Shown here: positions 8,580 through 62,737 of the stretch, piece after piece
How positions within the stretch are numbered: position 1 is the stretch's first letter
How the letters are laid out: every line of letters begins with the position of its first letter
NCBI GenBank assembly: GCA_044432725.1
Contig: JAWXUL010000004.1
Location: forward strand, 48,536-112,535
Source: Eubacteriales bacterium
GTDB lineage: Bacteria; Bacillota; Clostridia; Oscillospirales; Oscillospiraceae
Direction of reading: 5' to 3'
DNA: 64,000 nucleotides
The notes under the pieces: generated by a model
Seen by the model: the letters and a program-made list of their open reading frames with translations, nothing else
Database searches by the model: none
What the model was told of the DNA's origin: nothing
Program-made: the position numbers and the translations under genes

Positions 8580-8644
8580 GAATCTGACTTAATTCGAGAT
8601 AGTAAAAATATCTACGAAATGTACATTTTAAGGAGGAAATGACC

Positions 8645-44297: not shown

Positions 44298-45706
44298 ATA
44301 AATCAGCGATATTCTCGATCTTCTTTGCAGTGGTTTCTGTTCTTGTCATTGGAGGCACTTCCGTGAAACTTGCCTCTGTGAAAGAAGAAGTGACAATCAG
44401 TCAAACTGTTTTAGTGGGGGATGAAAGTCTTGTGACTAACATTCAGATGAATTTAATCACTTATGATCAATATATGAACTCTTGGGAGATGAATATACCC
44501 TTATCTGCACCAGAAGAGAGGGAAACTACCTTCTGTTTTAATGTGAATCCTTGGATTGCTTATCCCAACGAATCAGAAGGGGATTTTTACCTTGGAACAA
44601 GTGTTAATATTTCAGGCTCCACCATGGGAACAATGGATTTTGAACTCATGGAACAAGAGCAAGGACACGAACAACTTTCAAGAGAGATGCTACTACCTTT
44701 TTTGATGCTAAAAGAAGTAGCAAGTGCCACTCCATTAGGGGAAACCCACAGTGAAACTTTATCTATGGCAGATTATTATGATTACTTACCTCTTAGTTTT
44801 AACATTTTCCCCAAAGGGGCTCGAGCCTTTGTCAATCCTTCTTATGATATTTTACAAGATTATTTTAAGTTTCCTGTTCACCCAGAGATAAAACTGAACA
44901 TCACCGTTGAAAAAAGCATGGAGGGGGTCAAAGCTTATTCTGTTAAAAATGCGGGGGATATTACTTCTGAAATTCTGGCATCTTATGTGATGGTGGAGGA
45001 TGGTATCATTGCTGCGACACAATCAGTGACTTATCAGGTTTCCATGCCAGATGAATGGAGTATAATCAACGAATTCATCAGGCAAGAAGAAACTCAAATC
45101 ACTAAAATTTCTTGGAATCATGTGAATGATGGGAATATCAGCACTGTGGAAATAAACGATGTTTATGAAATTTCTACCCTTGATTCTTCTTATACTATCT
45201 TTGATATGGTGGATTTAGGAGAAAATTTAGGGGTATTGCAGGAAAAAAAGGACCAATATTCTTTTTCTGTCCGTGACAAAGAAAGTTTTGAAGAACTTCA
45301 ATCGGTACCTCTCAGCCATGATGGCTATACAATCAACGAAGTGGATGGTGCATTTCTGATTGTTTCTTCTATTTCTCCAGAGGAAACAGCACGTTTCACC
45401 GTGTTAGAACAAGAGAACGACCATGTTTTCATCGGATTAGAGGGGGAAGATAGGTATCTTTTGGAAGGTGAAGAGAACAAGTATTACTCTATGGCACATT
45501 ATAATTATCATAAAGGGCATCTTTCAATGATAAGAGAGTATCGACGACATGATCAACATTTAGGTGATATATTCGTGAAAGTTTTCGATGAAAGTGGTAT
45601 GTATTTTGCCAGTCTTTACGAAAGTAGCCAAACAATCCAAGGAGAATATTACAATGGTATTGATTATGTGCAACTCTTTGACCAAGCAGAAATTACTTAT
45701 AAATGA
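44294..45706 (+). CDS. membrane-anchored extracytoplasmic protein (470 aa, function unknown)
   Basis: A single N-terminal TM/signal anchor (AIFSIFFAVVSVLVIGG) followed by a large soluble domain. Last gene of the GntR-ABC operon. Confidence 0.6.
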   Translation: MNKSAIFSIFFAVVSVLVIGGTSVKLASVKEEVTISQTVLVGDESLVTNIQMNLITYDQYMNSWEMNIPLSAPEERETTFCFNVNPWIAYPNESEGDFYLGTSVNISGSTMGTMDFELMEQEQGHEQLSREMLLPFLMLKEVASATPLGETHSETLSMADYYDYLPLSFNIFPKGARAFVNPSYDILQDYFKFPVHPEIKLNITVEKSMEGVKAYSVKNAGDITSEILASYVMVEDGIIAATQSVTYQVSMPDEWSIINEFIRQEETQITKISWNHVNDGNISTVEINDVYEISTLDSSYTIFDMVDLGENLGVLQEKKDQYSFSVRDKESFEELQSVPLSHDGYTINEVDGAFLIVSSISPEETARFTVLEQENDHVFIGLEGEDRYLLEGEENKYYSMAHYNYHKGHLSMIREYRRHDQHLGDIFVKVFDESGMYFASLYESSQTIQGEYYNGIDYVQLFDQAEITYK

Positions 45707-46137: not shown

Positions 46138-49100
46138 TTAGACCTTAACATTTTGATTTATTTCTTGGATGATTTTGTGTATTCCTTGCCATACTGAAAG
46201 ATCCGTGAAAATCTCAACAACGCTTCCTTTGGAAGTGAACGGTGCTTCTTGCAAGACAGATAGGTCCTTCATCATACCATTTTCCACGATGTACTCCACA
46301 ATTTGGTTCACAAAGTAAATTTGTCGATCATCTAAATTCGCATTACTTAAAAACACCCCAAAGGCTTTTTTCGCTGCATTCATATCCAGTCCAAGAATTT
46401 CTCGGACAAATTCCCCTAGAGGTTTTTCGCCAAAGGTGTTTTCATATTCTTCGGCTGTGCCTACTTGACTCCATAAAATATCTTGTAAATCAACCATATC
46501 CTCAAATGTAAGTGGCTCATTATGCTTTAATTTCGCAATGGTTGGGTGATTTTGGTGTTCACGCACATAAAACTCTGCTTTTTCTTTATAATTTTTTAAA
46601 TCATCATTTTCTAAGTCAGATTCATGCCACTCCGTGGTGATTTCATCCGTGAAGTTGGTGCTATAAATGCGGTGTTCCTTTTTTATAAATTTCACCAAAC
46701 CACGTAGAGACTTTCTGATGTGTTCAAATTCTGGGATTGTTGCCTCCCCCATGTAATCATTGTGTAAAATTTTCTCGATTAACTCGTGTTGCGCCGTGAT
46801 TTCAGGAACATTTTGGATTCTGGAAATATCATTTACTCTTTGAAATAAATCACCTATTCCTTTAGACATTGGTTTTTTAGCCAAAAAGGCAAACTCTATC
46901 CCATAGAGAAGGGCATCGAATCGCAAAGCAGAAATTTCATCCTTGTCTGGCAAGATAAGATGTGCCAAATGTTCAGAAATCAGTGCCGTATCCTGAGAAG
47001 TGAGAGAATCATATGCCTTTTTATCGGAAAATTTCTCCACAAACTCTAAGTGCTGCTGCACTGCAAAGTGTTCTTTGTTTAATTCAGATACTTTTCCTAC
47101 TACTTCAATGACTAAGTTTTCTCTGATTTCTTGTAATTCAGGGCTTTGATAATCGAAGTCTTGGAGCAATAGAACTAATTTCGCCTTTAAATTCACCAAA
47201 GCACCTTGCAAAGGGAGGATATTGTTGGAAGTTTTTCCTTCGTGCATACGGAAGAACTTGAAATTTCCACAACAATCGAAAATATAGAACTTGCTTTTAT
47301 CCGTCCCGTCAATCAGGTTGGGACAAAGACGAGTGCCACGTCCAATCATTTGCCAAAACTTCGCTTTACTCATGACTCGTTTGAAAAATACCAGATTAAC
47401 CACCTCAGGAATATCAATCCCAGTGTCTAACATATCCACAGAAATGGCGATGTGTGGCATTTTATTCCCATCAGTGAAGCTATCAATGGCAGTTTCTGCA
47501 TAGTTAATATAATTATCAATGACTTGGGCAAAACCAGGAAGATGTGGATAGTTTTTGTTGAATATTTCGTATATTTTCTCTGCATGTAGATGATTCTTTG
47601 CGAAAACAATGGTTTTCCCTAGTTTGCTACCATAGTCCACTGAAATCCCTTGTGTCATCACCAAGTCCAACACTTTCGAGATGGTATCTTCGTTAAAAAG
47701 CCACTCATTCAGGGCAGAGGAAAGGATTTTTTTCGGAACATTCCCTGCATCATCGGTAAAAGTCTCTTCAAATTCTTCTTTTTCCTCGTCACTTAGGTCA
47801 TCATAGTGAATGCCTTCGTCAATGAATTTCAATTTACTTTCCACAGACATAAAATCCACTAAATATCCATCTCTCACAGCTTGGGCAAGTTCATAGCCAT
47901 AAGTGGGGATTCCCTTGTCCAGTTGGAAGATTTCATAGGTGTTTTTGTCAATTTCGTCCTTAGGTGTTGCCGTCAAACCCACCAAAGGCGCATCAAAATA
48001 GGTGAAAATATCCTTGTACTTGTTATAAATAGAGCGATGTGCCTCGTCACAAATCACAAGGTCAAAGTGACCTGTGGTAAACAGCTTCCCATCCTTGTCT
48101 TTGATTGTGTCAATGCAGTTGATCATTGTTTGATACGTAGAAAAAACGCAGTGAGCAGAGGTGTTTTTCTTATCTTCACAGAGATTTGTACAAGAAAGAT
48201 TAGGTAAAAGATTGACAAAGCTCCTTTTTGCCTGAGAAATCAGTGGAGTTCTGTCTGCTAGGAACAATATGTTTTTCACCCAACCATGTTTTTGCAGAAT
48301 CTCACAAAGTGCGATGACAGTTCTCGTTTTCCCCGAACCTGTTGCCATCACAAGGAGTGCTTTCCTCTGATTTTCTTCCAAAGTACGACAAACGGCTCGA
48401 ATAGCGCCTTCTTGGTAGTACCTATCTGCAATTTTCTTGTTCATTTCAATGTTTTTCAGGGGAGTTCGTTGTTTTCGCAAATTATAGAGTTTTTCCAAGT
48501 CTCGTTTTGCGTAAATCCCAGCCACTTTTCTTTCTGGATATTGCCAATCAAGAAGTCTGTATTCAAATCCGTTGGTTAAAAATAACACAGGTTTCACTCC
48601 ATGCTGTTTTTCAAGCAATTCAGCATACAATGTCCCTTGAATCCTTCCTTTTTCCACGGAAACAGAGGTTCTTTTTGCTTCAATGACGGCTAGAGGCTTA
48701 CCAACATCGTCATAAAGGACATAATCAGCGAAACCAACTTCGGATTTATTTGGCATTCCTTGCAGTTCTACCTCGTCAATCCAATTTCCCTTTTGTTTCC
48801 AACCTAAATCACGCAACATGGTGTCAATATATATTTTTCTGGTGGCATATTCTGATAAATCCAGAGGTTTTGGCTCGTAAGATTCTTTCTTTTCCTCGCA
48901 ACGCTGAGAAAGTTCCTCTCTCACATCCTCCTTTTCTTTCTGCAACGTGGTGAAGTCCACTTCAGAAATAGGACTGGCAGGGACGGCTTCTCCTTGCTTC
49001 AGTAAAACAGGGTCAAATTCTCTGTCCTCATAATGTTCCCCATAGCAATAGCCCAAGAAGTCAAGAAAAATATAGAGATTTTGCAAACAAATAGTGGCTT

Positions 49101-49416
49101 TTTGTTCTGAGATTTCTGCTTTTTCGTGGCTGGTATCATTCCCAGCTTTTCGAATAAAATCAAGTCGAAAGAACAACTCAGGATCTATAAACTGCTTAAA
49201 GCAACGAGCCGTCAACAGGCTGTGAAGGGTGCTGTTTTCTGGAAAATATAGTGCATTTTCCACAGAATAGAGCCATTTTATGGCGAACTCCATGGCTCTG
49301 CGACAGTTGACTGCTGCTGTGGCAGGGTCAATGGCAAAGCATTTCTCTGCATTCACTGCCACTTTGGCAAAGGTTTGAAATTGTGGTTCTTTGGTAAAAT
49401 GATCGAAGTTGGTCAT
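46138..49416 (-). CDS. hsdR: type I restriction endonuclease subunit R
   Basis: N-terminal DUF4145-like region, helicase motifs MATGSGKTRT and ICDEAHRS (DEAH), QMIGRGTR. Start set at ATG 49416 (MTNFDHF), just after the DUF559 remnant stop. Confidence 0.9.
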   Translation of the reverse strand: MTNFDHFTKEPQFQTFAKVAVNAEKCFAIDPATAAVNCRRAMEFAIKWLYSVENALYFPENSTLHSLLTARCFKQFIDPELFFRLDFIRKAGNDTSHEKAEISEQKATICLQNLYIFLDFLGYCYGEHYEDREFDPVLLKQGEAVPASPISEVDFTTLQKEKEDVREELSQRCEEKKESYEPKPLDLSEYATRKIYIDTMLRDLGWKQKGNWIDEVELQGMPNKSEVGFADYVLYDDVGKPLAVIEAKRTSVSVEKGRIQGTLYAELLEKQHGVKPVLFLTNGFEYRLLDWQYPERKVAGIYAKRDLEKLYNLRKQRTPLKNIEMNKKIADRYYQEGAIRAVCRTLEENQRKALLVMATGSGKTRTVIALCEILQKHGWVKNILFLADRTPLISQAKRSFVNLLPNLSCTNLCEDKKNTSAHCVFSTYQTMINCIDTIKDKDGKLFTTGHFDLVICDEAHRSIYNKYKDIFTYFDAPLVGLTATPKDEIDKNTYEIFQLDKGIPTYGYELAQAVRDGYLVDFMSVESKLKFIDEGIHYDDLSDEEKEEFEETFTDDAGNVPKKILSSALNEWLFNEDTISKVLDLVMTQGISVDYGSKLGKTIVFAKNHLHAEKIYEIFNKNYPHLPGFAQVIDNYINYAETAIDSFTDGNKMPHIAISVDMLDTGIDIPEVVNLVFFKRVMSKAKFWQMIGRGTRLCPNLIDGTDKSKFYIFDCCGNFKFFRMHEGKTSNNILPLQGALVNLKAKLVLLLQDFDYQSPELQEIRENLVIEVVGKVSELNKEHFAVQQHLEFVEKFSDKKAYDSLTSQDTALISEHLAHLILPDKDEISALRFDALLYGIEFAFLAKKPMSKGIGDLFQRVNDISRIQNVPEITAQHELIEKILHNDYMGEATIPEFEHIRKSLRGLVKFIKKEHRIYSTNFTDEITTEWHESDLENDDLKNYKEKAEFYVREHQNHPTIAKLKHNEPLTFEDMVDLQDILWSQVGTAEEYENTFGEKPLGEFVREILGLDMNAAKKAFGVFLSNANLDDRQIYFVNQIVEYIVENGMMKDLSVLQEAPFTSKGSVVEIFTDLSVWQGIHKIIQEINQNVKV

Positions 49417-49417
49417 C

Positions 49418-49774
49418 TTATTCATTCCTTTCTGTAATGATTGCATCATTAAGTTTTTGGCAAACTTCTCGAAAATGATTTTTCACTTCGTGATTGGTAA
49501 AACGAATGACTTTTAAGCCTAAACTATATAAGATTTTTGTTCTTTCTGTATCATAACTCATACCTTCCTCAGTATAATGCTGAGATCAGTCAAGTTCTAT
49601 CACCAGTTTAGCTTTGTGACAATAAAAGTCAACGATATAATTACCAATGATACGTTGTTTATAAATTTTGACTGGGTAGTGCCTCAAAAAATCGTACCAC
49701 AATTTTCTTTCTTCTTGTGTCATTTCTTTTCTTAGGCTTTTGGCTCTGCTAAGTAATTTATTGTTTTTCATCAC
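49418..49774 (-). pseudogene. DUF559 (Vsr-like endonuclease) gene with an in-frame TGA at 49586..49588
   Basis: Same frame reads ...YCHKAKLVIELD*SQHYTEEGMSYDTERTKILYSLGLKVIRFTNHEV. The stop sits where I remember this family having Gly (ELDGxxH), so GGA->TGA is the likely change. Confidence 0.7.
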
Positions 49775-49805
49775 TTCTGCTCAAAGATTCGCAATTTTCA
49801 AGAAC

Positions 49806-49946
49806 GCCCTCTCAGTCTTTTCCCCTGAAGAACACCCTCTCAGTCGCCTGAGGGCGACAGCTCTCCCAAAGGGAGAGCCAAAAGCCACGCACCCTCCTCT
49901 GCCTCTCCCTCTGGGAGAGGTGCCTCCGCAGAGGCGGAGAGGGTTA
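49806..49946. repeat. second copy of the GC-rich structured repeat family
   Basis: CCCTCTCAGTC...GACAGCTCTCCCAAAGGGAGAGCCAAAAG...GCCTCTCCC-TCT-GGGAGAGG-TGCCTCC-GCA-GAGGCGG-AGAGGGTTACCC aligns with units of 28803..29182. Fills the hsdS-DUF559 gap. Confidence 0.75.
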
Positions 49947-51056
49947 CCCAAAATACCCCTGCATTCTCTCTGCAAAGAGCATTTCCATCTTCACAAGCCC
50001 CTCTTCCATTTCTTTTTTTGCTTCCTCTACGCTTTGGACGTATAGGGCGAATTGTTCTTGGAGGGGGAGGGGGGGGAGAGGGAAACTTATTTCATTTAAC
50101 TTCGATTGATTTAGTTTTGGTTGTGCAGAGCCAGTTACGAATGGTGTTAAATCAATTTTGTTAAATAAATATTCGCAGTAAGTTTGTGTTGCTGTTGCGT
50201 GGAAAGAAAGTACATGAGCATGATTATTAATCCAACATTTTTCTTCAACAGAAAATGCTATAGCTGTTGTTCTAGCGAGTAGATTTGCCCCATCTTCGGA
50301 AATTAAAAGTAGTCTTTCATCAAAAATATAGTCGTTTACATAATCAATTATACCAGAAGCTCCATAATAGGGATATTTTCCAAGTTTTCGATCGTTACTT
50401 GTTATCGGAACCCTTCTGTTATCTAAATTTTTCGAAACATCATCAAGATTTTTTTCCTCCCACGCCATAGGATTCACCACTGGATCCCCAAACATCTCCA
50501 CAAACTTCGCCTTCACTAGCAAATTCAGTTTCTTGATTTGCTCTTTCCGTAGAGCGATGATTTCACTGATTTCATCTAATTCGTGAGCGATTTCTTGCTG
50601 TTTTTCAAGGGGTGGGAGGGGGAGATTAAATTTTGACAGCCAACCTGTATTCAAATTTGCTTGTGACGCACCTTTTACATTTTGTCTAATTTGTTCAAAA
50701 AAGCTTTTTGAAAACATCCAATAATACAAATATTTCAATTCTAAATTATCTTTATTTTTATTTCTAAAGAACCCTAAACTCACGAAAGTTCCAAATAAAG
50801 GAGTGTTTTTTTCAATTATTACTGGTTTCCCCAATGTTCCAACACGACAGAATAGCATATCACCAATTTGTGGCTTTGCACCTTTAGGTAGCGAGTTATA
50901 TTCTTCTTCTGTAATGTAACTGCATTTTTCAAAATTTATAAAACCTTGACTGATATCTTTAACAGATAGAAAAGGAACTCCCTGCTCTTGGTATTTAGGT
51001 GTATGCGTTAGTCCTAACGAAATCTGAACTATTTCTTCTAACTTCACTTCACTCAT
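49944..51056 (-). CDS. hsdS: type I restriction-modification specificity subunit S
   Basis: Two target-recognition halves separated by conserved helices (LPPLEKQQEIAHELD / LPPLPLQEQFALYV). ATG 51056 overlaps the hsdM stop (ATGAGTGA). Confidence 0.9.
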   Translation of the reverse strand: MSEVKLEEIVQISLGLTHTPKYQEQGVPFLSVKDISQGFINFEKCSYITEEEYNSLPKGAKPQIGDMLFCRVGTLGKPVIIEKNTPLFGTFVSLGFFRNKNKDNLELKYLYYWMFSKSFFEQIRQNVKGASQANLNTGWLSKFNLPLPPLEKQQEIAHELDEISEIIALRKEQIKKLNLLVKAKFVEMFGDPVVNPMAWEEKNLDDVSKNLDNRRVPITSNDRKLGKYPYYGASGIIDYVNDYIFDERLLLISEDGANLLARTTAIAFSVEEKCWINNHAHVLSFHATATQTYCEYLFNKIDLTPFVTGSAQPKLNQSKLNEISFPLPPLPLQEQFALYVQSVEEAKKEMEEGLVKMEMLFAERMQGYFG

Positions 51057-52548
51057 AAAACCCCTCCAACGCTTCCAATTTCGCCCCAATTTTTTTCTCT
51101 ATCTCAGAAATATCTGCTAAAATCTCCTTTGTTGGTGGGTAGACTTCTGCCACATACACTGTCTTTTTATACTTATTGATTGACAAATCATAGGCATTTT
51201 CCACGATTTCCTCTTTGGGAACGATGAAACTTTGTTCCGTCCGTTCCCGACTTCCCTCTGCCTCAACTTTACTAAATCGCTCCAAAATATCAGGGATATC
51301 GTTGTCAGAAATCTCACTTCGCTTGTCATCCAGTGAAAAACCATCAGCCTTCATGTCATAAAACCACACAGAATCTGTTCCACCATGCCCTGTTTTTGTA
51401 AAAATCAAAATCCCTGTACTCACCCCAGCATAGGGCTTAAATACCCCTGAAGGCATGGAAATCACAGCTTCAAGGCGATGATTTTCAATAATTTCTTTCC
51501 GAATCGCCTTATGCGCCGTAGAACCACCGAACAAAACACCATCAGGGACAATGACAGCACAGCGACCACCCACACGCAACATACGCAGCATCAGTGCGAG
51601 AAAAAGAAGTTCACTTTTCTTGGTTTTGCATACTTTTATCAGATGTCCAGAGACAATATCGTTGTCAATGCTTCCTTTAAAGGGTGGATTCGCCAAAATC
51701 AGAGAATATTTTTCGAAATCCGTGTTCTGATCTGACAAACTATCCCGATAATCTATGGAAGGGTTGTCCACACCGTGACTCATCATGTTCATAGCACCAA
51801 TGCGAAGCATGGTAGCGTCTGTGTCATAACCTGTGAACATTTCATTCATATAATGGTCCTTTGTTTCTTTGTTTCGGAGAATTTCACCATTATTTTTCTC
51901 TTTTAAGTAGTCACCACTTGCCACCAGAAAGCCAGATGTGCCACAAGCAGGGTCACAGATGAAATCCGTAGCAGAAGGTTCCATCAACTCCACCATCATA
52001 CGAATGATGTGTCTTGGCGTGCGAAATTGACCATTTAAGCCAGATTGTGCAATTTTTGAGAGCAAATACTCATAGACATCCCCACCAATATCCTTGTTGT
52101 GGAGTTCGTCCATACTAGCATAAATCTCATCTAAGGAATCCACCACTTTTGACAGCAATAAGGGGGTGGGGAGGTTAAAATTTGCCTTTTCCATATACTT
52201 AGCGTAAGAAGTTTGTTTTTCTCCGTGGAGATTCTTGATGAAAGGAAAGACAAAGTTACCCATCATGTCAAACATTTTTTCAGCAGGGAAATCGTGAAAA
52301 ACGGACCATTTCAGCTGTTCCCCAGAGATGGTTTCTCCTGAAATGGTGACTTCCTCAGGAAAAAGTGACTGAAAAGGCAGTCCTAACATGGCTGATTCCT
52401 TATTTCTCATCATATCGTTGTAATCCAGTCCACGAATGAACATCAAATAGGTGATTTGTTCCACCACTTCCAGTGGGTTCACGATGCCACCCGCTGCGAA
52501 CATATCCCATAAGCTGTCGATTTTGTTACGTAATTCCCCTGTAATCAT
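51049..52548 (-). CDS. hsdM: type I restriction-modification DNA methyltransferase subunit M (N6-adenine)
   Basis: 499 aa. FRTPRHII, DPACGTSGFL (motif I), LANPPFKGS (motif IV). Confidence 0.92.
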   Translation of the reverse strand: MITGELRNKIDSLWDMFAAGGIVNPLEVVEQITYLMFIRGLDYNDMMRNKESAMLGLPFQSLFPEEVTISGETISGEQLKWSVFHDFPAEKMFDMMGNFVFPFIKNLHGEKQTSYAKYMEKANFNLPTPLLLSKVVDSLDEIYASMDELHNKDIGGDVYEYLLSKIAQSGLNGQFRTPRHIIRMMVELMEPSATDFICDPACGTSGFLVASGDYLKEKNNGEILRNKETKDHYMNEMFTGYDTDATMLRIGAMNMMSHGVDNPSIDYRDSLSDQNTDFEKYSLILANPPFKGSIDNDIVSGHLIKVCKTKKSELLFLALMLRMLRVGGRCAVIVPDGVLFGGSTAHKAIRKEIIENHRLEAVISMPSGVFKPYAGVSTGILIFTKTGHGGTDSVWFYDMKADGFSLDDKRSEISDNDIPDILERFSKVEAEGSRERTEQSFIVPKEEIVENAYDLSINKYKKTVYVAEVYPPTKEILADISEIEKKIGAKLEALEGFYE

Positions 52549-52875: not shown

Positions 52876-53112
52876 TTATATATCTTCCACTTCTATAAAA
52901 AGTTGGTATGGCTCAATTCCTAGAACTAGGCAAATACGAAAAAGAATGTCCAAAGAAGGGGTTTTCTCGACGTTTCGTGCCTCGATATGACTGATATGTG
53001 TGCGAGATATGTTTGTCTTATGTGCCAATCCTTCTTGGGTTAAATGCTTCTTTTTTCTGTAATAAGCCACATTTTTTCCAATTATTTCATAGTAGTCCAT
53101 AGTTTCGTCCAT
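52876..53112 (-). CDS. XRE-family HTH transcriptional regulator (possible controller of the R-M operon)
   Basis: 78 aa. YRKKKHLTQEGLAHKTNISRTHISHIEARN is a classic Cro/C1 HTH. Same strand as, and directly upstream of, hsdM. Confidence 0.8.
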   Translation of the reverse strand: MDETMDYYEIIGKNVAYYRKKKHLTQEGLAHKTNISRTHISHIEARNVEKTPSLDILFRICLVLGIEPYQLFIEVEDI

Positions 53113-54900: not shown

Positions 54901-55114
54901 TGGAGAGCTTGATTTCTCTGGAAAAATTATGCAGAAAATAAAGTATTAAACTTGACAGCAAGGAACAAGTATGGTATGATATACCAATATGAAAAATATT
55001 TAAGCTCAAAGGCTTCATTATTTTGATTGAAAGCTATGGTTTCAAGTTGTTGCCTTGATTTCTGTAGAATCTTACAGTAGCAAATTATATATTATGACAG
55101 AGAGAAGTGGTTCT

Positions 55115-55873
55115 ATGAACTTTATGAAAGATATTTTAAGTGATTTTGTTGAAAGTGATAAAAATTTCATTCGGCATCTCCTAGGTATGCCTAATAATGC
55201 TACTGAAAAGCAGAAAAAATTATGGAAAGTGCTTTTGCTAGGCACTGTAGGATTTGCATTTTTCTCGATTCTTCGTGTCTTATTTAATTTTCAACCACTA
55301 TTTATTAAAGTGATCACAGTTATCGTTCTTCTCGCTGATTTATTTTTACTGGCGACAGACCGTGATAATATGGATGAACTTTTTGAAAAACCCACGTTCC
55401 TTATAGCTTTAGCTAGTGGGTTATTATTGTCCTTTGTGGGTATGTTACTCTACCTTAGCTACGCAATTTGGTTCATTTCCATGATTATCGGTTTTGTTCG
55501 TGGGGCAGACCGAAAACCGATATATCGTATTTTGGCAGCACTCACCAGTGGAATTGGGGGATTTGCTCTTGGGTTTAGTGTAAAAAATGTCCTATTTGAG
55601 TTGGTTGGTATGATTATCATTATCATTGTCTTTAAATATGTGCTTTTTGGCATGACAGCTCTTTTTGGTGTTGCAGCTGTAGCAGGTGTGATTGACGGAA
55701 GTAAACCTCGCTCGGAAGGAGCACAATCAGTATTGGATGGCATTAATGATGAAGGCGTTCAGTATGAGTATGTTGTAGATGAGGCAAGGTTAAAACAACA
55801 CTTGGCAAATGATCGAGTGAAACTGAAGACCGAGTTGAATAATATTGCTTATCGTAATCGACATGGAAAATGA
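55115..55873 (+). CDS. polytopic membrane protein (function unknown)
   Basis: About 252 aa from ATG 55115 (start uncertain; the ORF opens at 55055). Five or six hydrophobic segments. A terminator hairpin follows at 55917..55951. Confidence 0.55.
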   Translation: MNFMKDILSDFVESDKNFIRHLLGMPNNATEKQKKLWKVLLLGTVGFAFFSILRVLFNFQPLFIKVITVIVLLADLFLLATDRDNMDELFEKPTFLIALASGLLLSFVGMLLYLSYAIWFISMIIGFVRGADRKPIYRILAALTSGIGGFALGFSVKNVLFELVGMIIIIIVFKYVLFGMTALFGVAAVAGVIDGSKPRSEGAQSVLDGINDEGVQYEYVVDEARLKQHLANDRVKLKTELNNIAYRNRHGK

Positions 55874-56149: not shown

Positions 56150-56380
56150 GACAATTTGCTGTAGGTATGAATGGGTTTCAGGGACGAGGACAGCACTTTA
56201 ACGACTGTACCCCAGGGCACTCTCCCTTGCTCCTTTAGAGCAATTCACCTTGAGGAAACAGTTCTTCAAAAAGTTTAAAATTGAGAGTCATCCTTGGTGG
56301 ATTACCGAGATTTTTATCGATTTTAAAGAGCTTATTTTAGCAAAAGTAGAGAATGGGGATTGTGCGCTGTTGTCTTAAAA
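56150..56380 (+). repeat. copy C of the three-copy intergenic element (core CAAAAAGTTTAAAATTGAGAGTCATCCTTGGTGGATTACCGAG)
   Basis: Core at 56267..56309. Preceded by a 12-codon ATPase-like ORF remnant at 56071..56106. Confidence 0.55.
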
Positions 56381-56396: not shown

Positions 56397-56425
56397 TTGA
56401 CAAGGACGTTAACTTGTGCTAATAT
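56397..56425 (+). promoter_or_regulatory. sigma-A-type promoter of the MarR gene, followed by a palindrome ACTTAG-TAGTC-CTAAGT
   Basis: TTGACA, 17-nt spacer, TAATAT. The palindrome immediately downstream (about 56430..56446) is a candidate MarR operator. Confidence 0.55.
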
Positions 56426-56472
56426 GAATACACTTAGTAGTCCTAAGTAAAAAAGAACTGGGAGAGTTATCT

Positions 56473-56937
56473 GTGGACGAGATGAATTTATTCAATGAGC
56501 ACATGGACGCATTACAAAAACAGATTCATTTGCTCAAAAAAGTACGAACAGCAGAATACGGATTCTTTCAAAATAGTGATACTAACATTTTAAGACGTAT
56601 TCAAAAACATGAGAAAAAGCAGGGCGTGAAGACAACTTCGGTGAAAATCAGTCAACAACTGGGCATCACCCAAGCGACAATTACACCAATGCTAGACAGA
56701 TTATTAAAGAAAGGATATATTACCAAAGAAATTTCTCCCACAGATAAAAGGGCGAAATTGCTGTCGATCACGCCAGAGGGACAGGCTTATTTAACAGAAA
56801 CAAGTAATGCTGAAAAAAAACAAATTGAAAAGCTAATCACCTATCTAGGGGAAGAGGACACAAGGGAATGTATCCGGCTTTTACAGAAAATGACCCGCTT
56901 TCTTTGTGAGAACAATCCATCTCCAAGGGGAAAATAA
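56473..56937 (+). CDS. MarR-family transcriptional regulator
   Basis: 154 aa, GTG start after GGGAGAG. KISQQLGITQATITPMLDRLLKKGYITKEISPTDKRAKLLSITPEG is a typical MarR winged helix. Confidence 0.85.
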   Translation: MDEMNLFNEHMDALQKQIHLLKKVRTAEYGFFQNSDTNILRRIQKHEKKQGVKTTSVKISQQLGITQATITPMLDRLLKKGYITKEISPTDKRAKLLSITPEGQAYLTETSNAEKKQIEKLITYLGEEDTRECIRLLQKMTRFLCENNPSPRGK

Positions 56938-57008
56938 GACAAAAAGTGCTGCTTAGCACTATTTTTTGAATAAAAAAATACTTAGGTGTACGAAGAAAAG
57001 GAGAACAA

Positions 57009-57767
57009 ATGAGAAAAATTGCGATTTATGGAAAAGGTGGTATCGGAAAGTCCACAACCACCTCTAATTTATCCGCTGCTTTGGCGAAAAAAGGATTTAA
57101 AGTCATGCAAGTTGGTTGTGACCCAAAGTCTGATTCTACCAAAAACTTAATGGGCGGGAAAGTCATCCCCTCTGTTTTGGATATGTTGAAAGAACATGGA
57201 GATGATTTAAGCCTAGAACACGTGGTGTTCACAGGATATGCAGGGGTTCTCTGTGTGGAATCAGGAGGACCCACTCCAGGGATTGGTTGTGCTGGCCGAG
57301 GGATTATCACAGCTTTTGAAAAACTTGCAGAGTTAAAGGCATTTGAAGTTTATCAGCCAGATATTGTGATTTATGACGTTCTTGGTGATGTGGTTTGTGG
57401 TGGTTTTGCCATGCCAATCCGTGATGGATATGCAAAAGAAGTATTTATTGTCTCTTCTGGAGAGATGATGGCTCTTTATGCAGCGAATAACATTGCAACT
57501 GCTGTGAAGAATTTTGAAAAACGTTCCTATGCCAAAATGTCTGGACTGATTTTAAACAGCAAAAATATCGAAAACGAACGAGAAATTGTAGAAAAAGCTT
57601 GCGCAGAAATCGGTACGGAAATTATAACAGAAATCCCACGCTCTGGGGACATTCAAGTGGCAGAAAACAAAGGTGGAACTGTCTTTGAATTTGCAACAGA
57701 ATCCCCCATGTGTCAGGTGTATCAAGACTTAGCAGATGAAATAATCAAGAACACAACAGATGGATAG
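57009..57767 (+). CDS. nitrogenase iron protein-like ATPase (NifH/BchL/CfbC family)
   Basis: 252 aa. GKGGIGKST Walker A, DPKSDST switch [18 protein letters not shown] and [14 protein letters not shown] carrying the two [4Fe-4S] cysteines. Confidence 0.9.
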
Positions 57768-57779
57768 AAAGAGGTTTTT

Positions 57780-58505
57780 ATGAAAGATAACATGGAAGAA
57801 ATGGAAGCAAAAATGGATATGATGAGGAAACTGTCTGGGATGGAACGTTGTCCCTTGTCCTCTGCAGCAAAAGCAATCGCCTCTATTGAAGGTGCTGCAA
57901 TGCTGATTATTGGCACAGAAGAATGCACTTATTACTCAAAAGTTGGTATTATCAGACGTGGAGGGGGCGATATTTGTTTTTCTGTGGTGATGGATAAGCA
58001 CGATGTCACCTTTGGCTCTGCGGACAAAGTCGCCGCAGCCATCGACGAATTGATGGAAATCACGACGCCCAAAACACTATTTTTGGTGACTACTTGTGTC
58101 CCTGAAATCATCGGCGAAGATTACCAATCAATCGTCCAAGAAGCAGAAGAAAAATATAAACTGCCAATTCACCTCTTAACGACCAATCATTACACTGGTA
58201 AAGACGGAGAATATGGCTTTGAATTGGTGGAAAAAGCCATCGGTTATGCCTTGCCCAGAAAGAAAAAAAGAGATGGTCAAGGAAATTCTCCTATGGGAAA
58301 AATGGGGGAAATGGCTCATAAATTTGCTGGAAAAGGGCAAGGGGGTCGCCCTGAAGGAGGTCGCCCTGAAGGAGGTCGTCCAAGAGGAGATATGAGTGAG
58401 GAAGAAATGATGGCAATGATGCGAGACAAAATGGGAGGACACATGAGCGACGAAGAAATCAGAGAGAAACTTCATTCTCGTATGGGTGGAGGTGGCCGCA
58501 GATGA
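57780..58505 (+). CDS. nitrogenase component-1-like protein, NifD/NifE/BchN-type, single-domain and truncated, with a low-complexity tail
   Basis: 241 aa. ERCPL..., IIGTEECTYY, LVTTCVPEIIGEDY (Cys24/49/106). After about residue 165 it is only low complexity (GGRPEGGRPEGGRPRG, EEMMAMMRDKMGGHM). Confidence 0.75.
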   Translation: MKDNMEEMEAKMDMMRKLSGMERCPLSSAAKAIASIEGAAMLIIGTEECTYYSKVGIIRRGGGDICFSVVMDKHDVTFGSADKVAAAIDELMEITTPKTLFLVTTCVPEIIGEDYQSIVQEAEEKYKLPIHLLTTNHYTGKDGEYGFELVEKAIGYALPRKKKRDGQGNSPMGKMGEMAHKFAGKGQGGRPEGGRPEGGRPRGDMSEEEMMAMMRDKMGGHMSDEEIREKLHSRMGGGGRR

Positions 58506-59632
58506 GTTTAACACGTTTTTTACCAACTCCCTCTGACCGCATGGGTATTTTGTGGACGCTGTTACAAATAGAAGGTGCCATCGTGTTAGAATATGGACCA
58601 GCAGGTACTTCAGCTTATGCAAAGAAAAATTTCACCACATCTGAAATGAGTATTCCAGGGGATCTTTTCACGACGCAACTAAGCGAAAGTGAACTTGTTC
58701 TAGGTGAAGACACACGTTTAGAGAATAAAATCAAAGAACTGGACAAAAAACTCTCCCCAAAAGTGATTTTTGTCATGGCTTCTTCTGTTTCTTCCGTCGT
58801 TGGTTATGATGTAGAGGGTGTTTGCAGTTATTTAAAAGAAGAGGTAAAGGCACAGCTTGTTGTCTTTCCACAAGGTGGTTTTGCTGGAGATTTTTCTTCT
58901 GGATTACAAGCAGCCTACACAAAATTAGTCACAGAATTACCAGAAGAGACTGCTGAAAAAGAAAATTGTTACAATATTTTAGGCATTTCATCCTTTTCTT
59001 CCCACGGCGTGGGGGACATGAAAAAGGCAGAAGTAATGATGAAAGAACACTTTGCTTTGTCTCAACACGCAGTACTTTCTTGTGAAACAAATTTAGAAAA
59101 AATACTCACCATGGGAAAGGCAAAAATCAATTTGGTTCTTAGTTACGAGGGACTAAAAGGGGCAAAAATACTACAAGAACGTTTTGGAACCCCTTATGTT
59201 TATGGATTTCCAATCAGCGCAGAAAGCCAAGAAAAATTCTTTGGAGAAATCGCAACGTATATTCCAAGAATAAGCCAAGGAACACCAGTCACAGCCACAA
59301 AGAAAACAGGAAAAATCGCTGTCTTTGCCCCTTATGATGTGCTTATTGCCATGGAAGAATATGCCACAGAAGTGGGGCTTGAGGTGGAATTTCTACTGTG
59401 CAACCATTCACTGAAAGAAGTAGAAAATCCCTCTGAAAAAGTGCGTTACTGCAAAACAGAGAAAGAGAAAATCGCCTTGTTTCAGTCTCTTAAGGACACA
59501 AATATCATTGGGGAAGGGACATTCTTCTCTCTGGTTCACGAAAGTAACCAAACATTCACACTTTCTACAAGAGATGACAACAATCCAATCTTTCAACTCA
59601 TGGGTCATGAATCTTTTTGCATCAACGAGTAA
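58502..59632 (+). CDS. nitrogenase component-1-like protein, NifK/NifN/BchB-type, lacking the usual cluster cysteines
   Basis: 376 aa. The ATG overlaps the upstream stop (ATGA). ILWTLLQIEGAIVLEYGPAGTSAY and VIFVMASSVSSVVGYDVEG align to the Cys-bearing blocks of the D-like protein but carry Ser/Gly instead. Confidence 0.7.
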   Translation: MSLTRFLPTPSDRMGILWTLLQIEGAIVLEYGPAGTSAYAKKNFTTSEMSIPGDLFTTQLSESELVLGEDTRLENKIKELDKKLSPKVIFVMASSVSSVVGYDVEGVCSYLKEEVKAQLVVFPQGGFAGDFSSGLQAAYTKLVTELPEETAEKENCYNILGISSFSSHGVGDMKKAEVMMKEHFALSQHAVLSCETNLEKILTMGKAKINLVLSYEGLKGAKILQERFGTPYVYGFPISAESQEKFFGEIATYIPRISQGTPVTATKKTGKIAVFAPYDVLIAMEEYATEVGLEVEFLLCNHSLKEVENPSEKVRYCKTEKEKIALFQSLKDTNIIGEGTFFSLVHESNQTFTLSTRDDNNPIFQLMGHESFCINE

Positions 59633-59643
59633 GGAAAGAGAAA

Positions 59644-61032
59644 ATGAACACTAAAAATATAGGCGAAGAACTAGAGCAGAATTCCCTCCAAAAAACCATT
59701 GGTAAATACGCATTACCCGCTATTTTAAGTGGATTGGTGGCAGCACTTTATAACATTATTGATCAACTTTTCATTGGTCATATCATCGGAATTGATGGCA
59801 ATGCAGCCACAAACATTGCCTTTCCATTGGTCACCTTGACAACGGCAATCATGCTTTTGTTGGGATTAGGTGGCGCTGTGAATTTCAGTATTGCGTTGGG
59901 GAAAAAAGACCTAGAGCGAGGGAAGAAATTTGTGGGCGCTGTCTTAGTCGTTACCCCTTTGGTGGGGCTATTGATTACCACAATCACCTTGCTTTTTCTC
60001 AATCCACTCTTGTGGACATTGGGGGCGACGGAAAATAGTTTTGACTTAGCATTTTCTTATGTAAGTATTACAGCATTTGGCTTTCCCCTTTGGATGTCAG
60101 CAGAAGCCACAACGAAAGTCATTCGCTCTGACGGCTCTCCCAAATATGCTATGATTTGCTCTTTGACTGGAGCCTTCCTCAACTGTATCCTAAATCCCCT
60201 TTTGATGATCGGCTTTGACATGGGAATAGAGGGGGCTGCATGGGCAACTGTGATTGGTCAAGGTGTTTCCTTTTTCCTTGCCATAAGGTATTTCAAAAAT
60301 TTCAAGTCCTTCCCTCTCAAATGGGAAGAAATAAAACCAGATTCCACGATTATAAAACAAATCTGTAAAATTGGTGCTGCGCCTTTTCTCCAACAACTGG
60401 TGATGATGTTGACGCAAATTGTGATGAATAACATGGTAGTTCACTATGGTGGATTGTCAGCCTATGGCACAGAAATTCCCCTTGCTTGTGTAGGGATTAT
60501 CACAAAAGTGAATGCCCTGTATATGGCGATTATGATTGGAATAGCACAAGGAGCCCAGCCTCTCCTAGGATATTCCTATGGGGCGAAAAAGCCAGATAAA
60601 GTGCTGGAGATTTATCTGCAGTGTATTAAATATGCTTGTGCGATTTCTGTTTTGGTATTCTTGTCTTTTCAGATTTTCCCCCGTCAAATCTTATCTGCTT
60701 TCGGAGGAGAAGGAGAATTATTCTTTGAATTTGGTGTGAATTACTTTAGAATCTTTATGGCACTGACATTTTTAAACGGAATACAACCGGTCACTTTTAA
60801 CTTCTTTACTGCCATTGGCAAGCCTTTGAAAAGTGCCATCGTATCCCTGTCCAAACAATTACTATTTTTAATTCCCCTCTTATTGATTTTACCCACATTT
60901 TTGGGCATAGATGGACTGTTATACGCAGGACCTGTGGCTGATAGTTTGGCTTTTGCCATTACAATGGTATTTTTAAGAAAAGAAATCAGCGAGTTACAAG
61001 GGAATCCTCCAGAAGAAACAGTAATCGCATAA
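59644..61032 (+). CDS. MATE-family efflux transporter
   Basis: About 462 aa and 12 TM helices. N-terminal LPAILSGLVAALYNIIDQLFIGH pattern. Start ATG 59644 after AAGGAAAGAG. Confidence 0.85.
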   Translation: MNTKNIGEELEQNSLQKTIGKYALPAILSGLVAALYNIIDQLFIGHIIGIDGNAATNIAFPLVTLTTAIMLLLGLGGAVNFSIALGKKDLERGKKFVGAVLVVTPLVGLLITTITLLFLNPLLWTLGATENSFDLAFSYVSITAFGFPLWMSAEATTKVIRSDGSPKYAMICSLTGAFLNCILNPLLMIGFDMGIEGAAWATVIGQGVSFFLAIRYFKNFKSFPLKWEEIKPDSTIIKQICKIGAAPFLQQLVMMLTQIVMNNMVVHYGGLSAYGTEIPLACVGIITKVNALYMAIMIGIAQGAQPLLGYSYGAKKPDKVLEIYLQCIKYACAISVLVFLSFQIFPRQILSAFGGEGELFFEFGVNYFRIFMALTFLNGIQPVTFNFFTAIGKPLKSAIVSLSKQLLFLIPLLLILPTFLGIDGLLYAGPVADSLAFAITMVFLRKEISELQGNPPEETVIA

Positions 61033-61082: not shown

Positions 61083-61120
61083 GAGACAGTCTTTCTGGTG
61101 AGAGACTGTCTCTTTTTCTC
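61083..61120 (+). terminator. rho-independent terminator after the MATE gene
   Basis: GAGACAGTCT-loop-AGACTGTCTC followed by TTTTTCTC. Confidence 0.8.
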
Positions 61121-61259
61121 GGAAGACATGAAGCCACGCAGCCACACCCTTTCTTTCCTATGAGTATCAATATTTCTGCAAGTGTTGAACTGACTCCTGT
61201 TGGAATATCCTTGACATGAATAACAATTTATGGTAATATCAAGAAAAGGAGCTGTGATA

Positions 61260-61847
61260 ATGACAAGAATATGCAAAGATTGTGGGGCAGAGTTTACCCT
61301 GTCACAAGGTGAAATTGATTTTTACAAAGAAAAAAACTTCAATTTACCCCAACGTTGTAAAAGTTGCCGAAAAAAAAGAAAAGGAACCAATACACAGGAA
61401 CAAAAGCCATCTATCAAAGAACCTCGTGTTATATCTGTAAAGGAGCAATCTATTTACTCTAAAATTGCTAGTATCGTTGTTGCAGTCTTGTTGTTGATAT
61501 TTTGGATCTTACCAAAAATCACAAATTTATTCCAGCTGAATGAATCTTATTATGATACTACCTATTCTTCCTCACAAAGTGCTGACTTGGAGTTTAGAAG
61601 TGAGGAATATCTCAGTGAGCATTTCAGCAAACACGGAGGTTTACTGGGGCATTATAGCAAGGAAAGTTACTTATTAGCAGCAAATAATGTCATCAAGTCC
61701 TCCTCAGCGTTGAAACGAACCCAATCAGACGGAGACACAGCTTATTATCAAGAATCTAGCAATGAATTTGTAGTGGTTTCCACAGATGGCTATATTAGAA
61801 CTTATTTCAAACCAACAGATGGAAAAGAGTACTTTTACCGTCAATAA
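61260..61847 (+). CDS. zinc-ribbon / single-TM protein with an uncharacterised C-terminal domain
   Basis: CKDCGAEF...CKSCRKK zinc ribbon, TM helix IASIVVAVLLLIFWILP, then a ~110-aa C-terminal domain. Promoter TTGACA-17-TAATAT at 61211..61239. Start ATG 61260 after AAAGGAG. Confidence 0.65.
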   Translation: MTRICKDCGAEFTLSQGEIDFYKEKNFNLPQRCKSCRKKRKGTNTQEQKPSIKEPRVISVKEQSIYSKIASIVVAVLLLIFWILPKITNLFQLNESYYDTTYSSSQSADLEFRSEEYLSEHFSKHGGLLGHYSKESYLLAANNVIKSSSALKRTQSDGDTAYYQESSNEFVVVSTDGYIRTYFKPTDGKEYFYRQ

Positions 61848-62113: not shown

Positions 62114-62737
62114 ATGATGAATGTAGAAGGAAAAACATATACAGAAATGTTTCGCAGTGTGAAAATAGCGACAGCAGCTACTGTAGATGAATTTAACAAG
62201 CCTCAAGCTAGAATCATTAATGTGATGATCGCAAATGAAGATGGAATGTATATCGTAACATCCAAAGGCAAGCCTTTCTATAAACAACTGATGGAGACAG
62301 GAGAAATTGCATTATCAGCAATGTGCCCCAATAATAAATCTCTAAAATTCACTGGAAAATGTAGATTAGTGGATAAGTTTTGGGTAGATGAAGTATTTGT
62401 GCAAAATCCAGGGATGAACGAGGTATATCCAGAGGATAGCCGTTATATCTTGGATGCATTTCTCATCTACAGTGGACAAGGTGAATTTTTTGATTTAGAT
62501 ACCTATCCAATCCAAAGAACTTATTTTTCTTATGGTGAAGTACAGCGTGAAGAAGTTGGTTTCTATATCGATGAGCAATGCACAAAATGTAATGTCTGTG
62601 TGAAAAAATGTCCACAAAAGTGCATAAGCACAGGGGATACTTACAAAATAAAGGAAGAAAATTGCTTGTTTTGTGGTTTGTGTCTAGAGGTGTGTCCTGT
62701 AGATGCAATTAAGGCAAAGCATAGGGTGTTTCAATGA
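62114..62737 (+). CDS. pyridoxamine 5'-phosphate oxidase-like / 2x[4Fe-4S] ferredoxin fusion protein
   Basis: 207 aa. The N-terminal ~150 aa are a PNPOx-like split-barrel pattern (ATVDEFNKPQARIINVM...MYIVTSKGKPFYKQL). C-terminal CTKCNVCVKKCP and CLFCGLCLEVCP. Confidence 0.7.
   Translation: MMNVEGKTYTEMFRSVKIATAATVDEFNKPQARIINVMIANEDGMYIVTSKGKPFYKQLMETGEIALSAMCPNNKSLKFTGKCRLVDKFWVDEVFVQNPGMNEVYPEDSRYILDAFLIYSGQGEFFDLDTYPIQRTYFSYGEVQREEVGFYIDEQCTKCNVCVKKCPQKCISTGDTYKIKEENCLFCGLCLEVCPVDAIKAKHRVFQ

Follow-up and report, generated by a model that had tools for sequence, protein, structure and literature searches.

The DNA considered here is a stretch of 64,000 nucleotides, referred to below as the window, from an Eubacteriales bacterium of the family Oscillospiraceae that lives in the fish gut (assembly GCA_044432725.1, contig JAWXUL010000004.1, positions 48,536 to 112,535). 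It harbors a compact operon for a nitrogenase-like (NFL) system in which one of the two catalytic subunits consists of a single domain. The operon encompasses five co-directional genes, which encode a MarR-type regulator, an Fe protein (H), a short NifD-type subunit (D), a NifK-type subunit (K) and a MATE-family transporter, and which are framed as one unit by a promoter and terminators, as judged from the listing of open reading frames (ORFs), profile searches and a consensus scan. The features, in window coordinates and with lengths in amino acids (aa), are as follows.

56293..56309, + strand: terminator-like upstream hairpin, a 7-bp stem and then a T-run, which closes the preceding transcription unit and forms the left boundary of the operon
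56397..56425, + strand: sigma-70-type operon promoter, TTGACA, 17 nt, TAATAT, with an extended -10 TG; 10/12 consensus matches
56432..56448, + strand: perfect palindrome ACTTAG-TAGTC-CTAAGT (6-5-6) directly 3' of the -10 element, a candidate MarR operator
56473..56937, + strand: MarR, winged-helix regulator of 154 aa; PF01047 43.8 bits
56945..56960, + strand: weak hairpin with a 6-bp stem and T-run in the gap between MarR and H, a possible partial terminator or attenuator
57009..57767, + strand: H, ATP-dependent Fe protein of NifH/CfbC/MarH type, 252 aa; Fer4_NifH 332 bits
57780..58505, + strand: D, PF00148 protein of 241 aa; Oxidored_nitro 89.8 bits
57780..58259, + strand: core of D, aa 1-160, a Met-rich N-terminus and domain I of NifD/NifE/BchN type, with C24, C49, C66 and C106
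58260..58391, + strand: linker of D, aa 161-204, a variable Lys/Gly/Pro-rich segment with a 15-bp tandem repeat
58392..58505, + strand: tail motif of D, aa 205-241 and stop, two predicted amphipathic Met-faced helices
58502..59632, + strand: K, three-domain subunit of NifK/NifN/BchB type without cluster cysteines, 376 aa; Oxidored_nitro 166.7 bits
59644..61032, + strand: MATE-family efflux transporter, 462 aa from the ATG at 59644; PF01554 134.8 bits, TIGR00797 164 bits (cut-off 147)
61083..61112, + strand: strong intrinsic terminator with a 13-bp stem, the end of the operon

The start of K overlaps the end of D by ATGA, and the ATG at 59644, which lies 12 nt past the K stop, is a likelier start for the MATE gene than the listed TTG at 59617. 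An initial annotation, made from the letters of the sequence, had described a MarR gene followed by tightly packed H, D and K genes and, at the end of the operon, a MATE gene, and both the ORF listing and the profile searches bear this out. The regulator has the winged-helix MarR domain, with a PF01047 score well above the cut-off of 24.6 bits, and reaches no NCBIfam equivalog cut-off; the scores of D and K compare with a cut-off of 28.6 bits for PF00148 (Oxidored_nitro). The operon promoter is kept in a related locus, L004, where the counterpart of the palindrome is ACTTAGTAGACCTAAG, and the ACTTAG-N5-CTAAGT palindrome is a plausible candidate for a MarR operator that lies over the transcription start.

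With a NifH-type Fe protein and two PF00148 subunits, the system displays the features of the NFL superfamily, apart from the two domains that D lacks. The Walker A motif (GKGGIGKS) and both [4Fe-4S] cysteines that had been read in H at the outset are indeed present (the cysteines being C94 and C130), and together with switch I and switch II they are invariant across relatives. The protein scores 347 bits against the NCBIfam model for CfbC (cut-off 402), 344 bits against nifH (cut-off 394) and 230 bits against BchL (cut-off 345), and its closest PDB chain is 9fmg_D, the Fe protein of the methylthio-alkane reductase complex, at 275 bits. H is 72-81% identical among the bacterial loci of its family, is 57% identical to H of an archaeal Methanospirillum locus, and has a ratio of nonsynonymous to synonymous substitution rates (dN/dS) of 0.04. 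For D the corresponding scores are 31.5 against a cut-off of 654 for nifD, 32.6 against 420 for BchN and 37.9 against 268 for CfbD, and for K they are 18.8 against 427 for nifK, 60.8 against 490 for BchB and 33.7 against 268 for CfbD. All three proteins lie far below every NCBIfam equivalog cut-off and are remote from the solved NifEN, NifDK, MarDK and DPOR structures, in agreement with the earlier designation of the system as an uncharacterised nitrogenase-like one.

The system is not a nitrogen-fixing nitrogenase, as had also been proposed. Canonical nitrogenases (Nif/Vnf/Anf) hold their P-cluster with six cysteines, of which only three are found here, all in D, the K positions being occupied by S11, T36 and S95. 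The FeMo-co ligands alpha-Cys275 and alpha-His442 belong to domain III of the D subunit, and are missing from a D that ends after domain I; the nifH, nifD and nifK cut-offs, moreover, are not reached. The absence of nifB/E/N/V-type genes from the window likewise stands: no nifB, nifE or nifN, no other radical-SAM/NifB protein, no second Oxidored_nitro system and no NifV-type protein was found among the window ORFs of >=180 aa, the rest of the genome being outside the search.

To our knowledge, the catalytic subunits of the characterised NFL enzymes (Nif/Vnf/Anf, NifEN, DPOR, COR, CfbCD and Mar) all have the full three-domain fold. K is complete in this respect, covering positions 3-312 of the 399 in the Oxidored_nitro profile, whereas D covers positions 1-146 only, and residues 5-160 of D align with residues 12-171 of its full-length relatives (hhalign, E = 4e-54). 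Past this core the chain continues as a variable Gly/Pro linker and then as a conserved motif of about 37 aa, MSxEEMxxMxxxKxGGxMSxEEIRxKIxSxMGG. The two segments of the motif each end in GG (MSEEEMMAMMRDKMGG and HMSDEEIREKLHSRMGGGG), are conserved in the short-D proteins of Bacillota, and are predicted from their sequence to form two amphipathic, Met-faced helices with GG caps. Methionine makes up 32% of the first 22 residues of D and 14% of its tail, against 2% of the core. The initial annotation had taken the whole end of D to be a dissolving, low-complexity tail. This is true of the linker, which has a ratio of nonsynonymous to synonymous polymorphism (pN/pS) of up to about 2 and contains indels, but not of the C-terminal 40 or so residues, where a pN/pS of 0.05-0.3 reflects a constraint about equal to that on the core, which is under strong purifying selection (dN/dS 0.03-0.2). 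Within the linker, the 15-bp tandem repeat at 58339-58389 (2.7-3.4 copies) encodes GGRPE repeats, and since about six copies are found in a 69%-identical relative, P0002, the length of the linker changes by repeat slippage. The tail matches no Pfam family, its nearest being Lipoprotein_Ltp at a sub-threshold E of 0.02-0.09, and a profile of the tail found nothing at E <= 0.01 in 5.8 billion proteins, although the power of this search was low as the profile is biased and has only 44 residues. A hint from MAFFT that the tail might be a vestige of domain II of D was dismissed on an hhalign probability of 0.25%.

A truncated subunit invites the explanation that the gene is a product of deletion, frameshift or misassembly and that the cluster is a non-functional, decaying remnant. 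The repeat slippage in the linker could be taken in this sense, as could a copy in a Holdemania metagenome-assembled genome (MAG) in which D is frameshifted and K is N-terminally deleted. Nevertheless, we regard decay or artefact as very improbable, and for the window lineage it is effectively refuted. The identical 241-aa D, together with the overlapping K, was assembled from four separate sequencing runs, which rules out an assembly artefact, and the other frames of 58176-58505 encode nothing nitrogenase-like and hold no remnants of domains II and III, which rules out a frameshifted or split gene. The tail shows no homology to the missing domains. The alignment of K begins with its own Met1, which falls at profile position 3, and K is thus a paralogous subunit in its own right rather than the second part of D. 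Furthermore, short D proteins are conserved across three phyla, down to about 39% identity, with dN/dS far below 1 in both core and tail. A full-length D in close relatives, which the initial annotation had named as the sign of a deletion or assembly error, is not what is found; the short D is conserved in them. The short D is genuine and conserved, rather than an artefact or the product of a pseudogene.

Among 5.8 billion proteins, 26 relatives of D with 168-252 aa were found, down to 39% identity, and a scan of species-representative genomes yielded 15 short-D loci. The architecture is nonetheless rare, as an exhaustive search of 1.84 billion cluster representatives gave about four clusters at 50% identity (with representatives of 241, 322, 171 and 201 aa), below which nearly all matches are either full-length proteins of about 400-500 aa or fragments. 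The order MarR-H-short D-K is found in at least 11 species-level genomes, from Bacillota and from Akkermansia MAGs, and two of its hosts are in culture, Tannockella kyphosi and Chakrabartyella piscis. Many of the short-D loci derive from FM_ MAGs of a study on the hindgut of the seaweed-eating fish Kyphosus sydneyanus, or from isolates of this fish. The survey of related genomes thus showed that MarR-H-D-K recurs, but also that the MATE gene at its end is limited to the window and its two closest relatives. No conserved neighbours beyond MarR-H-D-K were found in the Bacillota loci. The Akkermansia MAGs have a D of 158-172 aa that lacks the tail, and an MBL-fold alkyl sulfatase (Alkyl_sulf_dimr) adjoins the module in them (L013:1663-3051, L014:4083-5471 and L015:6391-9454).

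The reduction is taken further in three Rikenellaceae MAGs, in which H is directly followed by a 317-322-aa fusion of domain I of D with domain I of K (L010:5171-6139, L011:6959-7927 and L012:6959-7912). The fusion joins about residues 8-133 of K through a disordered linker, and no further K gene comes after it. It is flanked by an AraC-type regulator, upstream and on the opposite strand, and by an OPT transporter downstream, and an alkyl sulfatase lies near the module in one of the MAGs (L010:868-2262). This fusion would be the smallest nitrogenase-type component known to us.

The initial description of a one-domain D with C24, C49 and C106 and of a Cys-less K proved correct, and these three cysteines are invariant in 32/32 related loci. 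A fourth, C66, is conserved in all 15 tabulated short-D loci and in the nearer full-length relatives and is replaced by Ile in a more divergent short D of 201 aa (P0156); the window D has no cysteines besides these four. In a profile-profile alignment (hhalign), S11, T36 and S95 of K stand opposite the three ligand cysteines of D, and these K residues show little or no variation in either the short-D or the full-length-D family. Thr36 falls at the position of NifK Cys95. This is also where, in the NB-cluster of DPOR, a single Asp of BchB completes the ligation provided by three cysteines of BchN (PMC13474568). Since K provides no cysteine and its invariant Thr36 takes the place of the BchB Asp, the cluster would be DPOR-like and is probably site-differentiated.

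A confident AF2 model of K (pLDDT 86, pTM 0.87) is nearest to the DPOR subunit BchB (3aek_B) in TM-score, with a TMq of 0.83 and a root-mean-square deviation of 3.6 Å, in comparison to a TMq of 0.72-0.75 for NifK, NifN and AnfK and of about 0.65 for alpha-type subunits. K evolves with a dN/dS of 0.15 and its N-terminus, MSLTRFLPxPSDRMGILW, is invariant from Met1. In domains II and III, the polar residues D130, S132, N158, N210, H302 and E320 are common to the short-D and full-length-D families, so the shortening of D seems to have left the K site as it was.

The ancestry of the system can be followed in trees of H and of K, each a neighbour-joining tree of 32 loci without bootstrap support and without an outgroup of other NFL groups. 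In both, the short-D loci form one clade nested inside a family with a full-length D of 420-500 aa, and their nearest full-length relatives are Epulonipiscium, Phascolarctobacterium and spirochaete sequences. The parent family includes members from human-gut Lachnospiraceae. It corresponds to a clade described by Dos Santos et al. in 2012, in which a NifH, an ABC-transporter gene and NifEN-like genes occur together, the E-like subunit carrying three P-cluster-type cysteines that the N-like subunit lacks (PMC3464626); the examples given were Clostridium botulinum CLM_0808/0809 and Alkaliphilus oremlandii Clos_0313/0314 (PMC3464626). A 2026 review by North and Shafaat lists no function for the clade (PMC13474568). 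In the literature we came across no account of a truncated D or a MarR-linked form, and on the function of the clade, or on NFL genes with haem uptake or Fur, nothing beyond the 2012 paper and an unverified Clostridium difficile entry. The latter is a line in an expression table (PMC11633334, section 3.3.1) that fits the arrangement of the parent family, of which this tractable pathogen may have a member.

Phylogenetically the short-D system lies within the 2012 clade, but its architecture, its regulation and its gene context set it apart. In both, the three cysteines are confined to the D/E-like subunit and are missing from the K/N-like one; their H proteins are 72-73% identical, the conserved residues of K are alike, and H and K of the short-D system are both nested inside the clade. 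In contrast, the D of the clade has 420-500 aa as opposed to the 158-252 aa of the short form, MarR precedes H in the short-D clade, the FecCD-type importer has gone from the short-D loci, and the Met-rich tail is new in the short D of Bacillota. The proposal that the system is undescribed therefore holds for the truncated, MarR-linked form but not for the pattern of cysteines (PMC3464626): it is new that D has been truncated, that the iron-chelate importer has been lost and that MarR has been gained, and the three-Cys/no-Cys subunit pattern, which was noted in 2012, is not.

The gene context of the parent family suggests a possible role connected with haem or an iron chelate for this widespread but orphan NFL family. 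Of the full-length loci, 15/17 combine H, D and K with genes for a FecCD permease and an ABC ATPase, as do 0/15 short-D loci. The importer usually includes a Peripla_BP_2 protein; its genes separate H from D in 14 of these loci and precede H in L020. In Phascolarctobacterium (L019:98-10835), the locus contains a TonB-dependent receptor, ExbB, ExbD, TonB, an ABC protein, H, D, K, a ChaN-type haem-binding protein and a flavodoxin. It is conceivable, if unlikely, that the short-D enzymes have kept this ancestral chemistry and still reduce a tetrapyrrole or metal chelate, such as haem, a corrinoid, a chlorophyll catabolite or an algal bilin, the uptake genes having moved elsewhere. The FecB/C/D-type, TonB and ChaN haem-binding loci of the parent family would favour this, as would the identity of the conserved K residues in both groups and the closeness of the K fold to BchB. 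Three characterised NFL enzymes act on tetrapyrroles (PMC13474568), and the host diet is seaweed rich in chlorophyll and phycobilins (PMC11333855). Nonetheless, without domains II and III of D, one half of a DPOR-type cavity should be exposed or missing, 15/15 short-D loci are free of transporter and tetrapyrrole genes over 7 kb, the regulator has been switched to MarR, and the tetrapyrrole role of the parent family is itself only suggested by its neighbours. As the truncation of D coincides with the loss of the importer and the gain of MarR, a changed substrate or physiological role is indicated.

Among the characterised systems, DPOR (BchL/ChlL with BchN-BchB, Group V) offers a parallel in mechanism. 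Both are two-component systems with ATP-driven electron transfer, and here too a single inter-subunit [4Fe-4S] cluster is predicted, with three cysteines from one subunit and a non-Cys position on the other. The predicted fold of K is nearest to BchB, and the spacing of the D cysteines (24/49/106) resembles that of BchN. However, K has an invariant Thr36 at the position of the Asp ligand, H is far nearer to NifH, CfbC and MarH than to BchL (344-347 as opposed to 230 bits), D is without the pair of domains that in DPOR makes up half of the Pchlide cavity, and no chlorophyll genes are present. The CfbCD system (Group IV-B) is similar in that CfbC is the top NCBIfam match of H at 347 bits, no NifB is involved, and the catalytic subunit is small, at about 350-380 aa, with a catalytic component that is predicted here to be equally simple in containing only a [4Fe-4S] cluster. 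Yet CfbD is homomeric with symmetric Cys ligation, whereas here there are two distinct subunits, one of a single domain, H scores 347 against a cut-off of 402 while D and K score 37.9 and 33.7 against 268, and the host is a bacterium with no F430 pathway. Group VI NflHDK of the Elusimicrobia type is characterised by an H that is sister to BchL (Group V) and by many radical-SAM neighbours, and was rejected on profile scores and gene context, given that H scores 344-347 bits for NifH and CfbC against 230 bits for BchL and that no radical-SAM genes adjoin it.

MarBHDK (Group IV-C) and IsrBHDK (Group IV-F) are, like the present system, of a non-nitrogen-fixing Group IV type, and H is most like the Fe-protein chain of 9fmg. 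The view that only CfbCD and MarBHDK have functions in Group IV, from which the initial annotation started, is outdated, in that Nfa (IV-A) and isethionate reductase (IV-F) now have assigned functions as well (PMC13474568). In the Mar enzyme, P-like and L-like clusters are required, with the MarD ligands Cys270 and His429 in domain III and with MarB/NifB needed, all of which is impossible here; MarDK matches D and K at E values of about 1e-6 to 1e-7, the 9fmg and 9d9u chains giving about 31-33 bits. IsrDK has one cysteine in D (NifD-C88) and three in K (NifK-C70, C95 and C153), a pattern opposite to the one seen here, and has an adjacent radical-SAM protein, IsrB, for which there is no radical-SAM neighbour here. 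The cleavage of C-S or C-O-S bonds in organosulfur compounds, as by methylthio-alkane or isethionate reductase, to free algal sulfur or carbon, is for these reasons an improbable function. The sulfatases lend it some appeal: an alkyl sulfatase adjoins the module in Akkermansia, and L015 has, on one strand, K, a gap of 25 bp, the alkyl sulfatase and a formylglycine-type sulfatase. Group IV NFL genes are also generally tied to sulfur metabolism (PMC13474568). But these Akkermansia and Bacteroidia genomes are very rich in sulfatases anyway, none of the Bacillota loci has sulfur genes beside it, no NifB/MarB/IsrB radical-SAM gene occurs in the window, and D lacks the entire domain that bears the L-like ligands of Mar.

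The maturase NifEN provides the best PDB and NCBIfam matches of D and K (fused NifEN, 9i0g, E = 7e-9 and 1.5e-18, and the nifE models). It differs, however, in that the identity is only about 15-20%, residues of an L-cluster or FeMo-co site are absent, there is no context of nifB, nifH or nifDK, and D is truncated. D-K might in principle be non-catalytic, serving as an ATP-gated relay of low-potential electrons to a separate enzyme or as an Fe-S scaffold or maturase in the manner of NifEN, and the Rikenellaceae fusion, which has no substrate-binding domains in any of the three MAGs, agrees with this, as do the NifE/NifEN matches. We consider such a role quite unlikely, though, as outside the Rikenellaceae domains II and III of K are kept along with the invariant H302, E320, N158 and N210, no conserved gene for a partner enzyme is linked, and the MarR-controlled four-gene module looks self-contained.

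A MarR orthologue lies directly upstream of H in 12/12 short-D loci outside the Rikenellaceae. No conserved cysteine was found across these orthologues; thiol-based redox sensing was rejected on this ground, and the regulator is probably not a thiol sensor. The transporter is a different matter, since a MATE gene 3' of K occurs only in the window, L003 and L004 (3/15 short-D loci, as a remnant in L004), and so is no core component. The suggestion that a small molecule is sensed by MarR, reduced and then expelled would at best describe an addition specific to one lineage. Extended to the whole system, it amounts to detoxification, in which MarR would sense a toxic small molecule, H-D-K would reduce it, and MATE, as an integral part, would expel the product. 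MarR regulators commonly control efflux and detoxification operons, and in the window the MATE gene lies 12 nt past K with a common terminator, an order that is repeated in L003 and, as a remnant, in L004. We judge this explanation unlikely all the same, because MATE is absent from 12/15 short-D loci, including both cultured hosts, and no other exporter is conserved beside the module; it could hold for the window sub-lineage only.

The interpretation that we prefer, and hold with moderate confidence, is that the operon encodes a functional, MarR-regulated, two-component ATP-dependent NFL reductase with a minimised catalytic component, in which a DPOR-like [4Fe-4S] cluster with three cysteine ligands lies between the subunits. 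By binding at the palindrome, MarR would keep the operon repressed, and a small ligand would lift this repression. The H homodimer, holding its own [4Fe-4S] cluster at C94 and C130, would be reduced by ferredoxin or flavodoxin, bind MgATP and dock on the D-K heterodimer, to which it would pass a low-potential electron. The acceptor is predicted to be the single [4Fe-4S] cluster at the D-K interface, held by C24, C49 and C106 of D, with C66 possibly involved; on the K side there may be an oxygen ligand or an open iron site, where Thr36 is flanked by S11, S95 and E30. Reduction of the substrate would then take place in a pocket to which K, with its three domains intact, contributes most. In Bacillota, the lost domains II and III of D may have been replaced by the flexible linker and the Met-faced helices, acting as a lid or docking element, and these helices may cover the side of the pocket opened by the loss or stabilise the complex. 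In the window lineage, MATE may export the product or the inducer. The system would have arisen from the family linked to haem and iron-chelate uptake by loss of the importer and gain of a ligand-sensing MarR repressor, with MATE added in the window lineage.

Several observations weigh against this interpretation of the operon as a functional reductase. The contact between D and K, the cluster and the function of the tail are all predicted, and Thr is an unusual Fe-S ligand. When the natural D-K fusion P0022 was modelled, it gave two well-folded domains and a disordered linker (pTM 0.71), and against single chains, including the fused NifEN 9i0g, only one half of it superposes (Foldseek, TMq about 0.38). 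The Rikenellaceae keep only domain I of D and domain I of K, which suggests that catalysis on domains II and III of K is not universal, and the absence of the tail from the Akkermansia D indicates that the tail is not essential to the core chemistry. In the Holdemania MAG the copy has decayed (L016:1600-3700), MarR and H being intact while of K only the C-terminal ~110 residues are left. Lastly, the operon contains no gene for an electron donor to H.

Three loci encode, no further than 7 kb from the NFL module, a protein that combines a PNPOx-like flavin-binding domain with a 2x[4Fe-4S] ferredoxin domain (window 62114-62737 on the + strand, L003:147-755 on the - strand and L012:9627-10316 on the + strand), with a placement and orientation that differ from locus to locus. 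This protein may donate electrons to the system, or its proximity may be a coincidence.

The substrate is most probably a small organic molecule that is abundant in the hindgut of seaweed-eating fish. Beyond this, we offer as a tentative and rather doubtful proposal that the system represents a new functional class, in which a single-domain D only presents a site-differentiated cluster and an Fe-protein docking surface to a BchB-like partner. Such a class would be the stripped-down descendant of an ancestor that processed haem or iron chelates, would have been passed on horizontally between Bacillota, Akkermansia and Rikenellaceae in the guts of seaweed-eating fish, and would perform the ATP-driven reduction of a diet-derived compound, perhaps an algal tetrapyrrole, a bilin or another xenobiotic. 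If this is true, the Rikenellaceae fusion would be the smallest known electron-accepting component of the nitrogenase type and the minimal unit of the superfamily. A one-domain subunit that is maintained by selection shows which parts of the nitrogenase-like architecture can be lost, the two-domain fusion going further still, and would provide a natural minimal scaffold for studies of ATP-gated electron transfer and for engineering. The analysis also ties the neglected family of 2012 to haem and iron-chelate uptake loci in human-gut and pathogenic Clostridia, and so gives a testable hypothesis for a large set of orphan NFL genes. The scarcity of tractable organisms has been named as the main barrier to work on orphan NFL systems (PMC13474568), and the two cultured hosts that carry MarR-H-D-K consequently offer a practical route to a new NFL substrate.

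The surroundings of the operon contain a number of further genes. Immediately past its terminator lies a gene with its own near-consensus promoter (61211-61239), and its product of 205 aa (61230-61847, +) has a treble-clef zinc finger (zf_Tbcl) at the N-terminus as well as a predicted membrane segment. Just upstream of the operon lies a gene for a predicted multi-pass membrane protein (55055-55873, +) that has no Pfam match at E <= 0.01. Three other ORFs in the window are without a Pfam match at E <= 1e-5, namely 1864-3297 (-), 33753-35066 (-) and 44294-45706 (+), and the four products range from 272 to 477 aa. A complete type I restriction-modification system occupies 46138-52548 (-), with HsdR at 46138-49449, HsdS at 49944-51089 and HsdM at 51049-52548, beside a small XRE-type ORF at 52876-53112. 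Chemotaxis is represented by CheA (3495-5735), CheR (6250-7065), CheB (7236-8267) and a dCache/HAMP methyl-accepting chemotaxis protein (24078-26207). Finally, two very large surface proteins with C-terminal SLH anchors are encoded in the window, one of 2230 aa with fn3 and YDG domains (8639-15331, +) and one of 838 aa with BspA-type leucine-rich repeats (38870-41386, -).

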